Assembly: GCA_028524385.1 (NCBI GenBank)
Contig: GCA_028524385.1_3661.2
Length of the DNA stretch: 52,202 nucleotides
Source of the DNA: a phage
Strand: one strand, 5' to 3'
Shown: positions 4,001 through 31,596 of the stretch, one piece after another
Layout: each line of letters opens with the position of its first letter
Position numbering within the stretch: position 1 is the first letter of the stretch
Notes under the pieces: model-generated
Databases searched by the model: none
What the model was told of the DNA's origin: nothing
What the model saw: only the letters and a program-made list of their open reading frames with translations
Translations under genes and position numbers: made by a program

Positions 4001-6691
4001 CCGTATATAGTCTTCTCGTCTGTCCATGCAAATATGAACGGAGAGAAGTATCCGTTCGACGTTCCGGTAGCCAATAGATACAGACGTGTCGTGATGATCA
4101 TTAAGTGCGACCTGATAGGTAAGCAAGTTCCTGCTGAAAACGGAACATCAACACACCCGTTTGAAATTGCTCTGCACTACCAATTTGCAGATTCGCCTTT
4201 TGCAGGGGATAAGAGAATATCTGATACAGATGCACAGCGTTGTAAGAAGGTATTGTTAGGTGCTGGATGGTGGTGGTATGAGTTTGACTTGACAGACAAA
4301 CTCACAGACAACACAAAAACTCTTACAGGTATTCGTCTGGACCTTGGTGAAAACATGCACAAAAGTGTCTGCGATGGCACCTATGGTGATCCTACAGTAC
4401 ACTTGAAATATGTTTCTCTTGAGCATCCGGAGGAAACTGTTATTGGCCCCAAACTGAGACTGTTTGGCAGCTGGATTGCTAAAGACAGAGTAGGAATGGG
4501 TAAAAAGGTAAGAGGATTCCTGATGGATGCGGGGACAGAAGACATGCTGGTTAATGCAGTGTGGCCTACTCTAGAGGGAACCGACTACAACAATGCTGCA
4601 AGATCTGTCAACTGGTTTAACATCCACAGAGCCATGTGGACTACCAACTGCTATTTGTGGAGAGAGCTTAACGATAATGCCTTCGGCTTCAGCAATGGCA
4701 GAAGGATGGCTATCATTTGCTGGACAACACTGCAACGTTGCTATGACCACAACTATGAAATAGGTGGTAGAGCGTGGAAAGACACCAGGGATAGAATTGT
4801 GTACAACTTTGCAGACGACAACGGTGGTGGAGCGTATAACTTCGGCACAAGCAGACTTATCCACTTAAACGGATCCTCGGCCTACAAGAAAGAAGGTTAC
4901 TCTGGATCCATGATTGAGTGGGGTCTGGTAAAAGATGCTCGCGTATTGATGGGCCAACAACTTGCTGCTGCAATAGGTCCTAACGCAGTGCAATCTGTTA
5001 AACCAGCGTGGTTCGATATTCCATTGTGGTCATCCGGCACACCAGGGACTGCTGCAATCAATCCTACCACGGGAGATCTGGAAATCTCTTGGGAAGACTT
5101 GAAGCAGGTTGGGGGCTGGGATAAGACAGGGTATCAGGTGCAGTGGTGGAAATCTGACGGATCGTTAGCAGCTGATGAGTTTGTTAAGGACAATTTCTAC
5201 ACCATGTCTTCTGCAAAAGCACAGCAATTGTTTGGTCAGGCCACTCCGTCAACGATCACCATGTCTATGTGTTGTAAAGACAACAGGACTGGAGCTCTGG
5301 GACCAAGGGTTGCTAAAGTTTTCTCAGGTATCAAATGGAATCTACCTGTTCAAAGTGTTTCATGGAAGCAAATAGGTGATAACAGGCTGCTGGTTACTCC
5401 TGCTTGCCAGTTCAACGCAACTCTTAACGTTGTTCCGGTTGTTGCAGCAAACTCAGCCAAAGCTTCTGACTTCTCTGTGTCTAACACTGCCATGGCAGAT
5501 GTGAGAAAGATTGACACACTGAATGCAAGAATCACCTGTAAAAACACTTATGGCACCTTCCAGGTTATCAACAACTTCACAGATGCCGATTCTAAGGTGG
5601 TGAGAACCGCAAGCCAGACCTTGCGTTTAGGGACTTTGGCTTATGCAGCATTGATCACTGAGCAGTCATCTACCCTTCAGGGTGGTGGCGTAGGCAAGTC
5701 TATTACAACACCTGTTTGGAAGCCTAACGAGTGGGTTGTGTTTGATTTGACTGTTGACTTCTCCAGTGATAATAACTGGACGTGGGTAAGGGATTGCTTG
5801 TCTCAGTTAATGGGTGGTCCAAGCTCTATCAGGGATAGCCACGACTCTACCGATCCTGGCGTGTTCCAAGTGGGTAAAACTCACCCAGAGACCGGGGCTA
5901 CATTGCCTGACAGGAAGTATGCTTTGGTTTGCATCTCCCACGGCAAGGCCGATGTCACATTCTCAGGGACACATACTTATAACGGAACCTACAACTTCTC
6001 AAGAAAATACAGCCTCAAGGCTGGGAATATTGTAGATGAGGTTGGGGTGTTGTATAACCCTGGCAATGGCATAGGTATTGTTGGCGGTAAACTGCAGATG
6101 CAGGAACCCTCTATCACCCCTTCCAACGTAACAGGGATCAGAAAGACTTGGGAAAGTAGTAATACTGGCATAGCAACCGTTGATGCTAACACAGGACTGG
6201 TAACATTTAAAGCGCCCGGTAATGTCAACATAACGTTTGTAGTTACGGATGATGCAGGCCGCAAGACGTCTTCAACATCTTTCACTGTCAAACAGATGAC
6301 ACCACAGTGGAGAATGTGGATAGGCAGAGCAACAAACGGGGCATACCCAAATCCGGCAGGGACTTCAGGAATGAAGACTTTCTCTGCAAGCAGACCGATG
6401 GAGTATGGCAGCGGTCCTAAAGTAGGGCAAATGGTGTACTTCGGCGCATATATTCCTGAAATTATAGGGCTTCCGAGAAATCAGATCCAGTTGCTGTTCG
6501 GATCTGGAGTTGACGAGCTTGCTACTTTCGGGTATAGCGATAACATCGAGGCTGCAAGAAGTTCCGGATGGGTAGGGTTCAGACTGCAGTTGGCAGTAGA
6601 AGGCAGGGTCATGGGGTTTGGCTCCATAGGTGCCATGCTTCCTGGTGATCAGCAGTATGATCTTGAAGCTTATGCAACTTTCTCTCGTTAA
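1055..6691 (+). CDS. large tail fiber / receptor-binding protein (1878 aa) with C-terminal Ig-like domain
   Basis: Longest ORF; SD ggag 7 nt upstream; size and composition of phage fibers; Ig-like (BIG2-type) segment ...VTGIRKTWESSNTGIATVDANTGLVTFKAPGNVNITFVVTDDAG... near C-terminus. Confidence 0.65.
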   Translation: MLPIPLLKLGRHFLDKRGGIKELAVLSYPIDNSDGTSTAVSYVNSLAILFDDGQLNITGYNKFGECRTGDRNPINYPSETAWNVDHVWRADRAFVIRTFDNQFFYIGCTAGLIGSTAAGGNDVCVREWTPLPEQIVTGLHLDTHPERLVEVMGGINNTVWVIAAPEADGMLHLYGSGNNTYGSLHVDKNQHATPVKIGESSESPETGPWKNPRINCEVHDNSVIFGGPNGFWIAGYDFLRNNSKNTPVYPAEHVTLDQFKGIPVGETWKGFMCGPNGAIIATERMHKPDDQQLVNVFYGQDVWGDDTWRSLNITYTHEVIMARGYGTSGIFFNNGTKQYRGFSRNLCNDIGAQSANNNPRANFIHYRALATAKFVEQTEPVSWTESVYFQGIHREGFLGTFCVVNGKLWWSGIPRGSFSGSNNLFGGRLNSQGFTEIPENWYKNVPVDSWSIEDIFDVNGVSSVSNIYIGDTVKMKLKPQPEGATFIIDKIELVNAAGTVVTDANYQFSTNWNHGGANEIVVTQHNRNINRRGLYSVKITYHDKHGAGRTHTTRNLNWNIIVPAYPSDGKWHTVGRKKQFHVNDTVYFGLNGSQPAPESDTAYMVRLHRQDAGSTTYDVTQEIYDQRRSIYDNLVKTQALWEFNPNGKGGKMLQVNEQNGTSLTVHEHADPWPDPGKPHPGARTLKVVSHNAGYFGIRWEATVKYVDGTTNNIGITLGGTSEDSSLKIAYTPRGISIDNMDIVRNGYGDVNIKVTLGEHLGGERIIMYAFDHDPRTNGTYANQAWSYLINAPEPNTKEFYYGMKRDVCKKTGTHDWIAICVKDERTAWDEPVNRWFIGIPTRSDKYVTEYIVCMGGTNLNLCWNEDANKYSDYDYMRDISCNQWFNQTTGYPPRQARVNPAIFTDTQVFLTKQANEVQTFKNKYDPNKWFYNCYGAFFWGPGELPNGGSCFEAATYGSDYIMGQVKKYKMIPGPETLGNAVDPYIVFSSVHANMNGEKYPFDVPVANRYRRVVMIIKCDLIGKQVPAENGTSTHPFEIALHYQFADSPFAGDKRISDTDAQRCKKVLLGAGWWWYEFDLTDKLTDNTKTLTGIRLDLGENMHKSVCDGTYGDPTVHLKYVSLEHPEETVIGPKLRLFGSWIAKDRVGMGKKVRGFLMDAGTEDMLVNAVWPTLEGTDYNNAARSVNWFNIHRAMWTTNCYLWRELNDNAFGFSNGRRMAIICWTTLQRCYDHNYEIGGRAWKDTRDRIVYNFADDNGGGAYNFGTSRLIHLNGSSAYKKEGYSGSMIEWGLVKDARVLMGQQLAAAIGPNAVQSVKPAWFDIPLWSSGTPGTAAINPTTGDLEISWEDLKQVGGWDKTGYQVQWWKSDGSLAADEFVKDNFYTMSSAKAQQLFGQATPSTITMSMCCKDNRTGALGPRVAKVFSGIKWNLPVQSVSWKQIGDNRLLVTPACQFNATLNVVPVVAANSAKASDFSVSNTAMADVRKIDTLNARITCKNTYGTFQVINNFTDADSKVVRTASQTLRLGTLAYAALITEQSSTLQGGGVGKSITTPVWKPNEWVVFDLTVDFSSDNNWTWVRDCLSQLMGGPSSIRDSHDSTDPGVFQVGKTHPETGATLPDRKYALVCISHGKADVTFSGTHTYNGTYNFSRKYSLKAGNIVDEVGVLYNPGNGIGIVGGKLQMQEPSITPSNVTGIRKTWESSNTGIATVDANTGLVTFKAPGNVNITFVVTDDAGRKTSSTSFTVKQMTPQWRMWIGRATNGAYPNPAGTSGMKTFSASRPMEYGSGPKVGQMVYFGAYIPEIIGLPRNQIQLLFGSGVDELATFGYSDNIEAARSSGWVGFRLQLAVEGRVMGFGSIGAMLPGDQQYDLEAYATFSR

Positions 6692-27573: not shown

Positions 27574-30500
27574 ATGAGCATGTGGTCTTTCGATTTTGAG
27601 TCATCCGGTTTGCTGGAAGACCCAGATCTTTATTATCACTGCGGCCTGTTTAAAGAGCTGAATAAGAACCGTTTTATGCTGTTCCTTCCTCTAAATGACC
27701 GCACACACTACTCTGAAGAGGATATAGAGAAGGCTAAGAACTTTATTCTGGCAAAGAAAACTCTTTATAAAGATTTTGAAGTTCGCATAGCAGATTTTTC
27801 AGAGTTGGAAGGTTGGCTTACAGGAAATTCTGACTGGTCACCCACAGCTTTGAACTGCCACAACTGCTACAGCTACGACTTTATGCTGATGGAGAGATTG
27901 TCCGGTATTCATTTTGATATGTTCCGTGACCCTAAGTGTATGGGGACTATCAACGACCACCAGGTTAATCTGTTTGATACGTTGGCGATGAGCCGAATCT
28001 TGTGGCCTGATCGCCCTTTACCAAAAGGTTGTCCGGACTCTGTATTCAACCCGGTTACTAAGAAAATGCAGCCTGTTGGTCCTCACGGCCTTATGGCATG
28101 GGGCTACGCCCTTGGTAACCAGAAAGTTCAAATTGATGACTGGCGCGATCTTCCGTTGTGGAAGTATGTGGATCGTGTATTCGAGGACGTTATCATCCAG
28201 GAGCTGCTCTGGAAAGAGCTGGTAGCGGAATCAAAAGGTGTATTCTACGGCAAATCTGACATGCAGAACTTTATGTACGATCCAGCCAAAGAGAAGCCGA
28301 AAGGGTTCAAGAAGATCACCTGGAAGAACGCACTACGTCGAGGCATGCTGCAGCACTTCCTGATGGAGCTGCAGGCCCGTCAGGGTGTATACTTCGACAT
28401 AGATGGAGCTATTGCTTTACGTGACCGTTGCGATGCGTGGATGAAAGAAATCGCTGATCGTGTTGAACCACAACTACCTTTAAAAGAGCTGTCAATGTCT
28501 CAGCGGCCCAAGTTCCCTGAAAAGCCGTTTAACCAAGACGGGACAATCTCTAATAATGGTTGGAAATGGTTAAAAGATAAGCTTGGCTATCCTGTAGACA
28601 TGAGCGCTTTAGATTTCAAAGCCCCGCCTAAGCGAGCATTTACCTCTACAGGAGATGTCAGCAAGATGGGGATAAAATGGTGTGAAGAGATGGGCTGCAA
28701 AGACCCCGATAAGATGGCTGATTTCTTGAGAGGCTATATTAAGGGCACTTCCACACCTCACCCTTTGCCTAAAGAGCTGATGGATCAGGCAATAAGTGAT
28801 CTACAGCAGAAGCGAATGCCGGACTGCAAGATACCTATGAAAATCAGCAATCAGGACGACATTAAGCGGTATCTGATCAGTGCTGGCTGGCTACCGACAA
28901 TGTGGAGAACTAAGGATGTAACTAAAGATAGCAAGAAGAAAGCTCTACCTGATGCGGATGTTGATGCACGAGTATATGCATATATGGACGAGCTTTTAGA
29001 GTCAGAGTATTGTGACCTGATTATCAACTTCTGGAACAAAACTGATGCCAAGTTCCAGACAACTGTGCACAAGTTCCGAAGCTTTCCTAACTCTGAAAGG
29101 ATTAAAAAGGAAGTATTCGGGAAAATACGTAGAAAAGCCAGAGCACTTATTACTTCTCCGCAACTGAAAGATACGTTTGGACACCTGTGTCCGAATCTTG
29201 AAAAATTGAACGGAGAGATGGCTAAAGATATCGTCTTGTGGTTATCATTGCGAAACCGCAGATCAGTCCTTGATCCAATCAAGGAGGATAAGGTTGATAC
29301 TGGTCTTCTTAATCACCCACGTTTGAAGATTGACCATAAGCTTCCTGCTAAAAGCTCTGGATTAACAAACACTTCCAGACAGAAACACAGTATTTGTGCA
29401 AACATGCCTAAACCATCCCCTAAAGTGGTTATGGGTAAAGAGATGCGCAGTCTGTGGGGTGTTCCTCCTGGATACTTTCAGATCGGTATTGACGGGTCCA
29501 ACTTAGAGCAGCTTATCGGGGCTTGGGGTGCCTTTGAGTTCGACAACGGCCTGTATTACGATGTTGTAAGTAACGGCGATGCACATTGTTATTCAGGAGA
29601 TACACAAATTCTCACGGAGAAAGGGTGGGTGAGGTTTGAAGATCTTGATCCGGGAACACAAGTGTTCCAGTACGATCACAACACCTCGTCAATGAACCTT
29701 GTTACTCCATTAAATTACGTTAAGCGTAGTTATTATGGAGATATGTATCATTTCCACAACAGTAGTGTGGATTTTATGGTTACAGATCAACACAGGATGC
29801 TGACTGTGGATCACAGAAGCAATAAATTGTTTGAAGATTTGGCAAAAGACCTGAAAGCAGGTAAAGGGTCTAATTCAGGAAGAAGGTTTATCCATGCGGC
29901 AGAGTTTTATGGGAATACAGCCTTATCTCCTGCCCAGGTTAATTTGCTTATTGCTATTCACGATGATGGGCACTTGCATACAAATAAGGACGGCAGCATC
30001 GTGTGCAGGATTCAGGTCGGAAAGGGAAGAAAAGTTGCAACGCTTTTAGATACTTTTTCTGCTCTAAGCCTTAGTTATGTAGAGCAGAGCGGGAAAACCA
30101 CAAAAGGAGGCTTACTGGCGAGAAGGTTCCAATTCCACGTTCCGTCTTGGGTATTTGAGTTTTTGGACAGCAATAAGGATTTCACCTACAACCTGATGAA
30201 CCTTGATAAAGAATCTAAAAACCTGTTTATAGCTTCTTTATCTAACTGGGACGGGTGGGTATCTTCAGAAGGTGGAAAGGTTGCTTACTACTCCCAGGCC
30301 GAGTGTAGGAAGAAATCTGTAGAGGTGGTGTCTGCGCTGGCTACTCAGTGTGGTTTACGGAATAATACGGTGGCGATTCACAAAAAAGGTCGTGCCGTGC
30401 AGCACAGAATCACAATTGGTAGCAAACAGAGAGCAGGGTTGCTGACACTATCTAAAGAGTCTGTCGAGGTGAGCGGTTCTTTGGTTTATTGCGTTACCGT

Positions 30501-30966
30501 CCCTTCTGGAGCAATCATTGTGAGAAGGAATGGTAAAGTGGCAGTGTGCGGTAACTGTAATAACGCCAAAGCTTACTCTTCTGTAGCAGGCAAGGAGATT
30601 TCCCGTAACGATGGTAAGCCTATCACGTATGGGGTTATGTACGGGGCACAAAAAGATAAAGTTGCAGATATGCTGGACATCTCTCCAGAGTTGGGACAAA
30701 GGGTAATCGATGCACTCTGGGATGCCAACCCTGGTCTCAAGGGGCGCAAAGAGGATCTGGAGAAATTCTGGGAAGCAACTGGTAAGAAGTTTATCTACTC
30801 TTTTGATGGTCATGCTATCTGGACCAGATCTAAACACTCTTTACTTAATGCATACCAACAGAATGGTGGTGCATCGCTGTGTGACTTAGTTGGGATACTT
30901 ATGCACCACCAAATGGTGAAGCGTGGGTGGTACGATGAAGGTGTTCGTCGTATTATTTATTACCAT
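27574..30966 (+). CDS. family A DNA polymerase (T7 gp5-like), exon 1, containing an intein
   Basis: Exo I FDFE, HCG and HGLMAWGYALG as in T7 gp5 exonuclease domain; motif A IDGSNLEQL...NGDAH; motif B-like GKPITYGVMYG after intein; track ORF continues 2 codons into the intron to stop at 30972. Confidence 0.75.
29587..30555 (+). mobile_element. intein (323 aa) with LAGLIDADG-type homing endonuclease domain
   Basis: Inserted after extein ...SNGDAH; starts CYSGDTQILTEKGWVRFEDL; two LAGLIDADG-like motifs (LLIAIHDDGH, LFIASLSNWDGW); ends VYCVTV...VAVCGN followed by +1 Cys; flanks align to T7 gp5 NGDIH|TKNQ...RDNAKTFIYGFLYG. Confidence 0.65.
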
Positions 30967-31242
30967 AAATAACATTGTGGCTTCATAGAGTAATCTATGT
31001 CGAATAACCTCTTTAACTGCGGGAAGCCTAAACCTTATGGCAAGGTAATCCGCAACGAAGCGCTCAAAAGAGCGAACGCTCAGAGGCCATTCCGAAAGGA
31101 AGTAGACCAGCAAGTGCGGTCGAAATGGGAGGATTCCTGTGGTTGCTTATCATAGGAATATGAGATGGTCCGATCCTACGTGAAAACGTATGGCTATGCA
31201 CGTAATGGTGCGGGGTAGCTTAACGACCTACCTGAACTATTG
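30967..31242 (+). ncRNA. group I self-splicing intron (ORF-less) in DNA polymerase gene
   Basis: 276 nt between exon U30966 and terminal intron G31242; P/Q/R/S core elements aactgcgggaag, aatccgcaacg, cagaggcca, gagatggtcc; IGS gugg can pair with exon end ccau. Confidence 0.65.
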
Positions 31243-31596
31243 GATGAGTACCAACTTCAGGTCCCTGACACGCCTAAGTATAAGACTGTGTACACCTTCG
31301 ACACAATTGAAGAATTGGAAGCATTTAAGGCAGAGCAGGAGGCCAAACTTCATGTGTTTGACGGTCATAAGTACAAAAAGGCACGCAAGGATGAAAACGG
31401 AAACGAAGTGGTTGACAGAGACGGAAACACGGTGTACGATCCTATCCTGAACGATGACGGAAAGCTTGAACTTATCTGGAGCCCTGTGGGTGAAATGGTG
31501 GTGCATTGCTTCTGGCAAGCTTCTAAAATGATGGGCGTTCCATTCCAGATCACAGGTGAATACTTGTGTGGTCGGAACTGGGGTGATTGTCACTAA
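31243..31596 (+). CDS. family A DNA polymerase, exon 2 (motif C to C-terminus)
   Basis: Begins DEYQLQV, completing YYH|DEYQLQV (Pol A motif C HDE); ends ...GRNWGDCH like T7 gp5 ...GPNWAICH; no SD or promoter of its own. Confidence 0.65.
   Translation, partial: DEYQLQVPDTPKYKTVYTFDTIEELEAFKAEQEAKLHVFDGHKYKKARKDENGNEVVDRDGNTVYDPILNDDGKLELIWSPVGEMVVHCFWQASKMMGVPFQITGEYLCGRNWGDCH

Follow-up and report, generated by a model that had tools for sequence, protein, structure and literature searches.

The family-A DNA polymerase gene of a phage contig (GCA_028524385.1_3661.2, from NCBI GenBank assembly GCA_028524385.1) carries a 323-residue in-frame insertion that is very probably an intein, one that is functional and mobile and that encodes a LAGLIDADG homing endonuclease in frame. 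The window referred to below is the whole stretch of this DNA that was analyzed, 52,202 nucleotides (nt) in length. A region of about 4 kb around the insertion is 93–97% identical in DNA sequence to Vequintavirus genomes (rV5-like Escherichia coli myoviruses), and 136 phage records were matched. The first-pass annotation, made from the letters of the window alone, had proposed an intein at residues 672–994 of this polymerase and a second, unrelated selfish element in the same gene. Both proposals hold: the intein is borne out by intein-less orthologues, a family alignment, a predicted structure and a fold search, and the second element is a group I intron, which matches Rfam RF00028 with 64.7 bits (gathering score 50; E = 3e-14).

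The insertion and its junctions

The polymerase open reading frame (27574..30972, + strand; 1132 residues) is orthologous to rV5 gp223 and is preceded by a T7 gp4-like primase/helicase gene. When both the intein and the intron are removed in silico, the C-terminal 365 residues of the product align with T7 DNA polymerase (E = 7e-14). Motif A of the window (GIDGSNLE) corresponds to T7 GIDASGLE, which contains Asp475, motif B (RNDGKPITYGVMYGA) to T7 RDNAKTFIYGFLYGA, and motif C (YYH-DEYQL) to T7 WVH-D654-E655-IQV. In this alignment the insertion lies between motifs A and B, where the first-pass annotation had placed it by comparison with T7 gp5; NGDAH-C of the window matches NGDIH506-T of T7, i.e., the element sits between the equivalents of His506 and Thr507. 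We take His506 of the T7 polymerase to be a ligand of the phosphates of the deoxynucleoside triphosphate, contacting those of the incoming nucleotide in the T7 ternary complex. A catalytic, highly conserved insertion site is typical of inteins.

The insertion consists of 969 nt (323 codons) in frame, starts CYSGDTQILTEKGW and ends VAVCGN. By direct comparison, exactly these 969 nt are missing from rV5 (NC_011041), LL12, RudolfGeigy and PDX, i.e., the intein-less homologues have a gap of the full length of the element rather than the uninterrupted alignment that would have spoken against an intein. More generally, seven of the 136 related records cover the whole query, and the majority cover 75% of it, without the 969 nt. 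In the intein-less alleles (rV5, LL12, RudolfGeigy, and PDX), ...YYDVVSNGDAH is followed directly by QNNAEAYTKVAGREVSRNDGKP..., whereas in the window, 241Ecol014PP, Mangalyan, JEP1, NHEP1, YP-6, and VB-EcoM-WM the same residues are followed by the 323-residue element and then by CNNAKAYS(S/A)VAGKEISRNDGKP.... The C-extein accordingly starts QNNAEAYTKVAGREV (QNNAE...) in the intein-less alleles and CNNAKAYSSVAGKEI (CNNAK...) in the window. The site in the rV5 polymerase is ...GTAAGTAACGGAGACGCACAC joined to CAAAACAATGCTGAGGCATATAC..., and the flank in the carriers is TGTAATAACGCCAAAGCT.... Replacement of Gln by Cys at +1 is what is expected for an intein, which must either bring or find a nucleophile at this position.

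Given this precise absence in the intein-less orthologues, both proposed junctions are exact, including the C-terminal one, which had been offered as a best estimate; its Gly-Asn (GN) ending is also the rule in the intein family described below. An assembly artefact or a chimera is ruled out, as the same insertion is found in seven separately deposited phage genomes and in one metagenomic contig. Base composition gives no signal of foreign origin (GC content 0.438 in the intein and 0.453 in the exteins). The features of the locus are collected in Table 1.

Table 1. Features of the invaded polymerase gene (positions in the window).
Feature	Position	Strand	Basis or detail
N-extein, polymerase exon 1 before the intein	27574..29586	+	ends ...VVSNGDAH; aligns with T7 polymerase chains 1t7p/2ajq, E = 7e-14
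Short 5' tract resembling co-conversion	29577..29586	+	positions -10 and -7 differ consistently between intein-containing and intein-less alleles
Intein, 323 residues (Cys1...Asn323), 35.9 kDa	29587..30555	+	presence/absence of 969 nt, family alignment, AlphaFold2 model, Foldseek
N-terminal HINT subdomain (residues 1 to ~100)	29587..29886	+	block A CYSGDTQILTEKGW (Cys1), block B MVTDQHRML
LAGLIDADG endonuclease domain, in-frame, double-motif (residues ~101–285)	29887..30441	+	model, Foldseek, profile alignment
LAGLIDADG motif 1, LLIAIHDDGH (residues 120–129, Asp127)	29944-29973	+	
LAGLIDADG motif 2, LFIASLSNWDGW (residues 213–224, Asp222)	30223-30258	+	
C-terminal HINT subdomain (residues 286–323)	30442..30555	+	block F LVYCVTVPSGAIIVRR, block G NGKVAVCGN
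+1 Cys codon (TGT), first C-extein residue	30556..30558	+	Gln (CAA) in intein-less alleles
3' tract resembling co-conversion, presumed homing-site immunity	30556..30600	+	~19 substitutions in 45 nt, in all intein-containing alleles and in no intein-less allele
C-extein part of exon 1	30556..30966	+	motif B RNDGKPITYGVMYGA to ...RRIIYYH (His equivalent to T7 His653)
Group I intron, 276 nt, without endonuclease reading frame	30967..31242	+	Rfam RF00028 at 30957..31192
Polymerase exon 2	31243..31596	+	DEYQLQVPD... (motif C Asp-Glu) to ...GRNWGDCH and stop

Architecture, predicted fold and family

The element has the residues expected of an intein: an N-terminal nucleophile (Cys1 in block A, as first annotated), a TxxH motif in block B (Thr66 at B:7 and His69 at B:10, followed by Arg70 at B:11 and Met71 at B:12), a terminal Asn (Asn323 at G:7) and Cys at +1. 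In block F (VYCVTV), Cys302 occupies F:4, a kink is formed at Pro306 and the His of F:13 is absent. Block G has Cys321 at G:5 and Gly322 at G:6; the penultimate His, which is common though not obligatory in inteins, is not present.

An AlphaFold2 model, computed from the window intein aligned to 16 relatives from the database, has a mean predicted local distance difference test score of 90.2 and a predicted template modeling (TM) score of 0.87. In this model, beta-strands of residues 1–75 and 289–322 make up a HINT domain, and between its halves lie two alpha-beta-beta-alpha-beta-beta-alpha units, which represent a duplicated LAGLIDADG fold. The first helices of these units (residues 115–127 and 208–222) end in Asp127-Gly128 and Asp222-Gly223, respectively. 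The best Foldseek matches in the PDB are the TliVMA intein (7qsu; E = 1e-13, TM score 0.68), PI-SceI (1vde; E = 3e-13) and PI-TkoII (2cw7), followed by the monomeric LAGLIDADG enzymes I-DmoI, I-SceI, and I-Tsp061I (E = 1e-5 to 1e-6) and then by the mini-intein 6zgq. When the family profile was compared with PDB sequences, both motifs aligned with the LAGLIDADG blocks of a VMA intein. The two LAGLIDADG-like motifs that had been read from the sequence are thus present and coincide in alignments with LAGLIDADG helices, both those of relatives and those in solved structures, and the model supports the LAGLIDADG assignment at the fold level. An endonuclease of the HNH or GIY-YIG type, or one in another reading frame, is ruled out, as the in-frame domain folds as LAGLIDADG in the model; an endonuclease in another frame has been reported for some actinophage inteins (bioRxiv 10.1101/2025.01.02.630785).

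The class 1 inteins PI-SceI (Sce VMA1) and TliVMA (1vde and 7qsu/7qss; E = 1e-13, TMq 0.61–0.68), which are the best structural matches, resemble the window intein in having a HINT domain interrupted by a double-motif LAGLIDADG endonuclease, and in following the same homing life cycle. They differ from it in sequence (10–16% identity), in possessing an Asp at F:4 and a penultimate His, and in their larger size (about 430–450 residues), with an added DNA-recognition region; their hosts are eukaryotic and archaeal V-ATPases.

Closer relatives in sequence are found in other phages. When the 323 residues were searched against translated phage genomes, 390 full-length matches of 21–31% identity were found, located inside unrelated genes. 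These encode nicotinamide phosphoribosyltransferase (NadV) in Staphylococcus Kayviruses and Citrobacter phage Tr1, NrdB in Tenacibaculum and Pseudanabaena phages, NrdA in T5-like Salmonella and Shigella phages, thymidylate synthase (ThyA) and PhoH in Acinetobacter phages, a primase/helicase in Pseudomonas phage KIL1, and the gp3 nucleotidyltransferase in cluster C mycobacteriophages; relatives are also present in an unannotated stretch of Lak megaphage genomes. The occurrence of one module across so many different host genes is, judged from these sequences, diagnostic of a mobile intein. In KIL1 (NC_030934), the primase/helicase coding sequence is joined from two pieces around the intein homologue, i.e., a protein element has been annotated in the manner of an intron.

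In a 12-member alignment built from the phage records, Cys1, His69, Asp222, Cys302, Gly322, and Asn323 are invariant, and every member ends in GN followed by Cys, Ser, or Thr. A word-indexed protein search with the intein sequence alone found nothing, and a repeat with this alignment as the query was successful. An exhaustive profile search of 1.84 billion representative proteins returned 12,085 matches at E ≤ 1e-30. Conservation was calculated from 239 full-length copies in the best 150 proteins among these matches, a sample that is enriched for query-like sequences, and whose percentages therefore describe the clade and not inteins generally. Among these copies, Cys occupies position 1 in 99% and F:4 in 95%, Thr occupies B:7 in 97%, His B:10 in 100%, Gly G:6 in 96% and Asn the final position in 99.6%; the +1 residue is either Ser or Thr in 85%, and most family members have Ser, Cys, or Thr at G:5. 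The acidic residues of the LAGLIDADG motifs are similarly conserved (E/D in 95% for motif 1 and D/E in 94% for motif 2). With a GN ending in 228 of the 239 copies, the penultimate Gly is a family rule and not an irregularity that would blur the junction.

Two family-A polymerase fragments among the proteins found have inteins of this GN and F:4-Cys family at other positions. In P0015, an endonuclease-less mini-intein lies two residues upstream of the window site (...KPND, then C...SGN, then CHTINA...), and in P0019 an intein lies further downstream, after motif B, from which it appears that the fingers region of PolA is a repeated target.

Splicing residues and proposed mechanism

Two related inteins have been characterized experimentally. 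The first is that of the recombination directionality factor (RDF) of mycobacteriophage Bethlehem (gp51; the GenBank gp52 phosphoesterase), which aligns with the window intein over its full length (BLASTP E = 2e-11). It splices to completion in E. coli, replacement of Gly316 by His makes splicing slower, and its endonuclease is toxic in this bacterium (Kelley et al., 2016; PMC5050341). Both inteins have Cys1, the block B His, Cys at F:4 (VWC in Bethlehem) and the GN ending; they are of similar length (317 and 323 residues), and each carries an in-frame endonuclease between the splicing halves and interrupts a phage DNA-metabolism gene. However, the two are only 21% identical, the Bethlehem intein ends TGN and is followed by Ser at +1 instead of Cys, and its host gene is a metallophosphoesterase/RDF gene without an intron, in a different phage and host phylum.

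The second is AceL NrdHF (6zgq), the closest relative of solved structure by sequence (E = 9e-9 with the family profile) and also a structural match. This is a proven class 3 split intein with a splicing half-time of about 4 min, in which position 1 is Ala, block B has Ser B:7, His B:10, Arg B:11, and Met B:12, and Cys F:4 is the essential nucleophile (Hoffmann et al., 2020; PMC7891396). A Pro-Gly kink removes the His of F:13, the sequence ends Thr-Gly-Asn, the substitution G145H renders the intein inactive, and Arg B:11 is in contact with the scissile carbonyl at the C-terminal junction (PMC7891396). AceL NrdHF, which is of phage-like metagenomic origin, shares with the window intein Arg B:11, Met B:12, Cys F:4, the Pro kink without a His at F:13, and Gly at G:6 followed by Asn. 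It differs in its Ala1, its class 3 mechanism and its Thr at G:5, where the window intein has Cys1 and Cys321; moreover, it is split in nature, its halves being separated by a free-standing GIY-YIG gene, whereas the window intein is contiguous and contains its LAGLIDADG domain in frame. The comparison of blocks F and G rests on the residue numbers given in PMC7891396; a search of PDB sequences with the C-terminal 47 residues gave only chance matches. Experiments on these two relatives have shown that a penultimate Gly supports, and even favors, splicing (PMC5050341, PMC7891396).

By published definitions, class 3 inteins lack the N-terminal nucleophile (PMC7891396, PMC4031507). In the window intein, the Cys at F:4 that marks this class is present, and is invariant in both family alignments, together with an N-terminal nucleophile, Cys1. 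As to the other two residues of the WCT triplet, Met71 stands in place of Trp B:12 and Cys321 in place of Thr G:5; Met at B:12 is also found in AceL NrdHF. On account of its N-terminal nucleophile and of these two differences, the window intein is not class 3 by definition, and it has been filed as class 1-like. Its sequence favors, with some reserve, a chemistry that is purely of class 1. In that case, Cys1 would perform an N-S acyl shift, assisted by Thr66 and His69, the acyl group would be transferred to Cys+1, and Asn323 would then cyclize; by analogy with AceL NrdHF, Arg70 (B:11) would likely compensate for the absent His residues at F:13 and G:6. Cys302 stands at F:4, where ordinary class 1 inteins have a catalytic Asp, and may either replace this Asp or act as a relay nucleophile.

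The invariant Cys at F:4, which the first-pass annotation had not pointed out, links the family, at the sequence level, to the class 3 inteins; its presence next to Cys1 is the single unusual feature of the window intein. As far as its sequences indicate, the clade, which is very large and mostly of phages, combines Cys1 with Cys F:4, lacks both assisting His residues and usually has Ser or Thr at +1. It is therefore conceivable, though we consider it unlikely, that the clade splices by a hybrid path, in which the Cys1 thioester is relayed via a branch at Cys302, or in which either Cys can initiate, and which would make the clade a bridge between class 1 and class 3. For the window intein, such class 3 or hybrid splicing would have Cys302 attack the N-terminal bond or take the acyl group from Cys1, giving a block F thioester that is then passed to Cys+1; Cys1 would be dispensable, or would have an auxiliary or redox role. 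The constancy of Cys F:4 in the 12-member alignment and among the 239 relatives agrees with such a path, as do the choice of Ser, Cys, or Thr at G:5, the preference for Ser or Thr at +1, which is typical of class 3 inteins (PMC5222942), and the unusual features held in common with a proven class 3 intein, AceL NrdHF (Arg at B:11, Met at B:12, Cys at F:4, the Pro kink, the missing F:13 His and Gly at G:6). However, the near-universal Cys1 of the relatives conflicts with a definition that requires the nucleophile to be absent (PMC7891396, PMC4031507), Trp B:12 and Thr G:5 are lacking, and the related Bethlehem RDF intein was treated by its investigators as class 1 (PMC5050341); this leaves class 3 or hybrid splicing of the window intein an improbable alternative to the class 1 route. 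An earlier engineering study came to the conclusion that a direct transition of this kind was unlikely (PMC7664689). No mutational data on inteins with both Cys1 and Cys F:4 were found in the literature.

Selection, probable mobility and the companion intron

Carriers of the intein amount to seven of the 136 related phage records, and all seven GenBank carriers are named phages with E. coli or Escherichia fergusonii as host; since they were deposited as phages of these bacteria, the polymerase presumably matures correctly. The eight alleles compared are all open and all keep the Asp127-Gly and Asp222-Gly pairs. Between the window and the other alleles, the ratio of nonsynonymous to synonymous divergence (dN/dS) of the intein is 0.07–0.11, which indicates purifying selection. 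The 27 amino acid differences from VB-EcoM-WM are distributed across the domains (17 in the endonuclease and 5 in each of the N-terminal and C-terminal HINT subdomains), and the catalytic residues are all kept. Taken with the predicted structure, these sequence data make it highly probable that the element is a functional intein, and the endonuclease is, to judge from its sequence, likely to be active at present.

Two further observations bear on mobility. First, the synonymous divergence (dS) of the window intein from its counterparts in five carriers is 0.08–0.09, while that of the flanking polymerase exon in the same genome pairs reaches 0.37 (NHEP1) and 0.40 (YP-6), from which it follows that the intein is younger than the backbones in which it resides. 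Second, the carriers share a block of flanking substitutions (Table 1), which on the 3' side includes five amino acid changes in addition to Gln to Cys at +1; outside the tracts, differences are sporadic. This block looks like a co-conversion tract and would also destroy the presumed recognition site. It is strongly asymmetric: the 3' side has about 19 changes within 45 nt and the 5' side two within 10 nt, and the asymmetry may reflect either the location of the endonuclease recognition site or a recombination end-point.

Outside the E. coli phages, a 139-kb IMG/VR contig encodes a polymerase of 75% identity with an intein at the same site, itself 75% identical and 325 residues long; its flank, CNNAKAYSKVIGREVS, is intermediate. 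The sequences therefore suggest that the element is older than the E. coli phage group, which it may have entered from a lineage like that of the IMG/VR contig.

Under the favored reading of a functional, mobile intein, the gene would be transcribed, the downstream group I intron would be removed from the RNA, and a precursor of 142.5 kDa would be translated. Self-excision of the intein would then yield a polymerase joined as ...NGDAH-CNNAK... (106.6 kDa; 925 residues after both RNA and protein splicing, as computed) and a free intein of 35.9 kDa. In a mixed infection, the released intein would cut an intein-less polymerase allele around the junction of GACGCACAC and CAAAACAATGC, and repair from the intein-containing genome would copy the intein together with about 45 nt of its 3' flank.

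Several points weigh against this reading. The search with curated intein profiles, proposed by the first-pass annotation as a check, matched Pfam Hint_2 and NCBIfam TIGR01445, yet both scores are below the curated thresholds (23.6 bits against 28.4, E = 7e-5, and 15.5 bits against 24.5, respectively), and the window intein has no match to Pfam LAGLIDADG. With neither the F:13 His nor the penultimate His, and with a Cys in place of Asp at F:4, class 1 chemistry is an assumption. VB-EcoM-WM departs from the pattern of divergence, its intein dS (0.49) being higher than its extein dS (0.20), which fits an older separate lineage rather than a single recent sweep. In addition, the shared flanking tract could stem from one ancestral invasion and ordinary recombination rather than from repeated homing. 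Finally, splicing, endonuclease cleavage and the target site are all things that we infer.

In relatives, Pfam Intein_splicing was found in 3 of 12 (best E = 7e-7) and LAGLIDADG_3 weakly in 4 of 12 (best E = 0.002), PF14528 is among the precomputed annotations of six of 19 database relatives, and a PHROGs search returned only host-protein families that contain related inteins. Sub-threshold scores of this kind are probably the reason why the seven GenBank carriers are annotated merely as DNA polymerase or hypothetical protein.

Some of these points would also suit an intein that splices, and whose endonuclease is inactive or no longer mobile, the element being passed on by vertical inheritance and general recombination among Vequintaviruses. 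Motif 1 is atypical (IAIHDDGH) and the window sequence escapes the Pfam model, the single tract in all carriers could mean one ancestral acquisition, and the similar identity (75%) of intein and polymerase to the IMG/VR copies fits long vertical co-descent. On the other hand, both catalytic Asp-Gly pairs persist in all eight alleles, dN/dS is about 0.1 in a domain that would be of no use to the phage if it were inactive, and the low dS of the intein relative to the polymerases of NHEP1 and YP-6 argues for recent lateral spread into diverged backbones. The toxicity, and hence activity, of the related Bethlehem endonuclease in E. coli (PMC5050341) points in the same direction, and loss of mobility therefore appears rather improbable.

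That the element does not splice at all, as a tolerated domain insertion or a degenerate, dead intein kept in the mature polymerase, is very hard to reconcile with the data: the sub-threshold profile scores and the missing penultimate His would allow it, but a 36-kDa two-domain insert placed immediately behind the dNTP-binding His of the fingers, between motifs A and B, would be expected to interfere with catalysis, the splicing residues are complete, down to the compulsory Cys that replaces Gln at +1, and under purifying selection, the HINT and LAGLIDADG folds are predicted with high confidence, and relatives ending in GN have been proven to splice (PMC5050341, PMC7891396).

The intron interrupts motif C, separating His653 from Asp654-Glu655 (T7 numbering). 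Its 5' splice site follows CAU at 30966, as defined by P1 pairing with a U.G pair, its last base is the G at 31242, and the reading frame resumes with GAT GAG at 31243; in the intron-less alleles of NHEP1 and of the IMG/VR contig (L023), YYHDEYQ is uninterrupted. P1 pairing, frame resumption and the intron-less alleles together place the intron at 30967..31242. Among relatives, Mangalyan and VB-EcoM-WM have longer introns (843 and 842 nt) with an HNH gene inside, and JEP1 has one of 328 nt; the LL12 and RudolfGeigy records already annotate the exon join. All four combinations of presence and absence of intein and intron exist among close relatives. A comparable case is the Certrevirus CB7, of the same phage subfamily, whose DNA polymerase gene contains two introns that have been shown to splice (PMC7344957). 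In CB7, these introns carry HNH genes and no intein has been reported in the polymerase, inteins being located in the helicase, NrdA, and NrdB; in the window, by contrast, it is the polymerase that carries the intein, and the intron has no endonuclease gene. What the two have in common is a single essential gene of nucleotide or DNA metabolism that harbors two unrelated selfish elements, each at a catalytic motif.

Other observations concern the surroundings of the gene. In 241Ecol014PP, an HNH endonuclease gene (5544..6191) lies 3' of polymerase exon 2, and the corresponding place in the window is without such a gene; this points to more homing-endonuclease traffic near the polymerase locus. 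The rV5 record (NC_011041) has one additional base near nt 16 of the polymerase open reading frame (window ~27589; TCTCTTCG instead of TCTTTCG), which breaks the frame and accounts for the annotation in rV5 of a tiny gp224 and of a polymerase that starts at Met35; this base is probably either a sequencing error or a genuine frameshift. In the whole window, ARAGORN found no tRNA genes, and no Rfam family other than the group I intron scored above its gathering threshold.

Earlier work has documented inteins of phage replication genes, inteins that contain LAGLIDADG domains, inteins whose penultimate residue is Gly, and genes holding both an intein and an intron (PMC5050341, PMC7344957, PMC4760082), and the window intein is a member of a very large known phage clade rather than an element of a new kind. 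Seven public genomes already contain this exact element, unannotated; no paper on an intein in a Vequintavirus polymerase was found in the literature searched, which excludes subscription journals. E. coli and the other enteric model organisms have been described as lacking inteins (PMC5050341). Here, a natural and apparently active intein resides in the essential replicative polymerase of a lytic coliphage. Close relatives that can be grown on laboratory E. coli supply alleles without the intein (rV5), without the intron (NHEP1), and with both elements. This set of alleles offers a convenient system for the study of homing, co-conversion, the fitness or regulatory cost of protein splicing, and the coexistence of intein and intron. 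The labels of the seven GenBank carriers, together with the sub-threshold scores of the hidden Markov models, also indicate that annotation pipelines miss this intein. Lastly, the signature of Cys1, Cys F:4 and a Gly-Asn ending, in common with a proven class 3 relative, raises a testable question on the origin of class 3 splicing, and with a coliphage carrier of which intein-containing and intein-less alleles exist in nature, the hybrid mechanism could be put to the test in E. coli.

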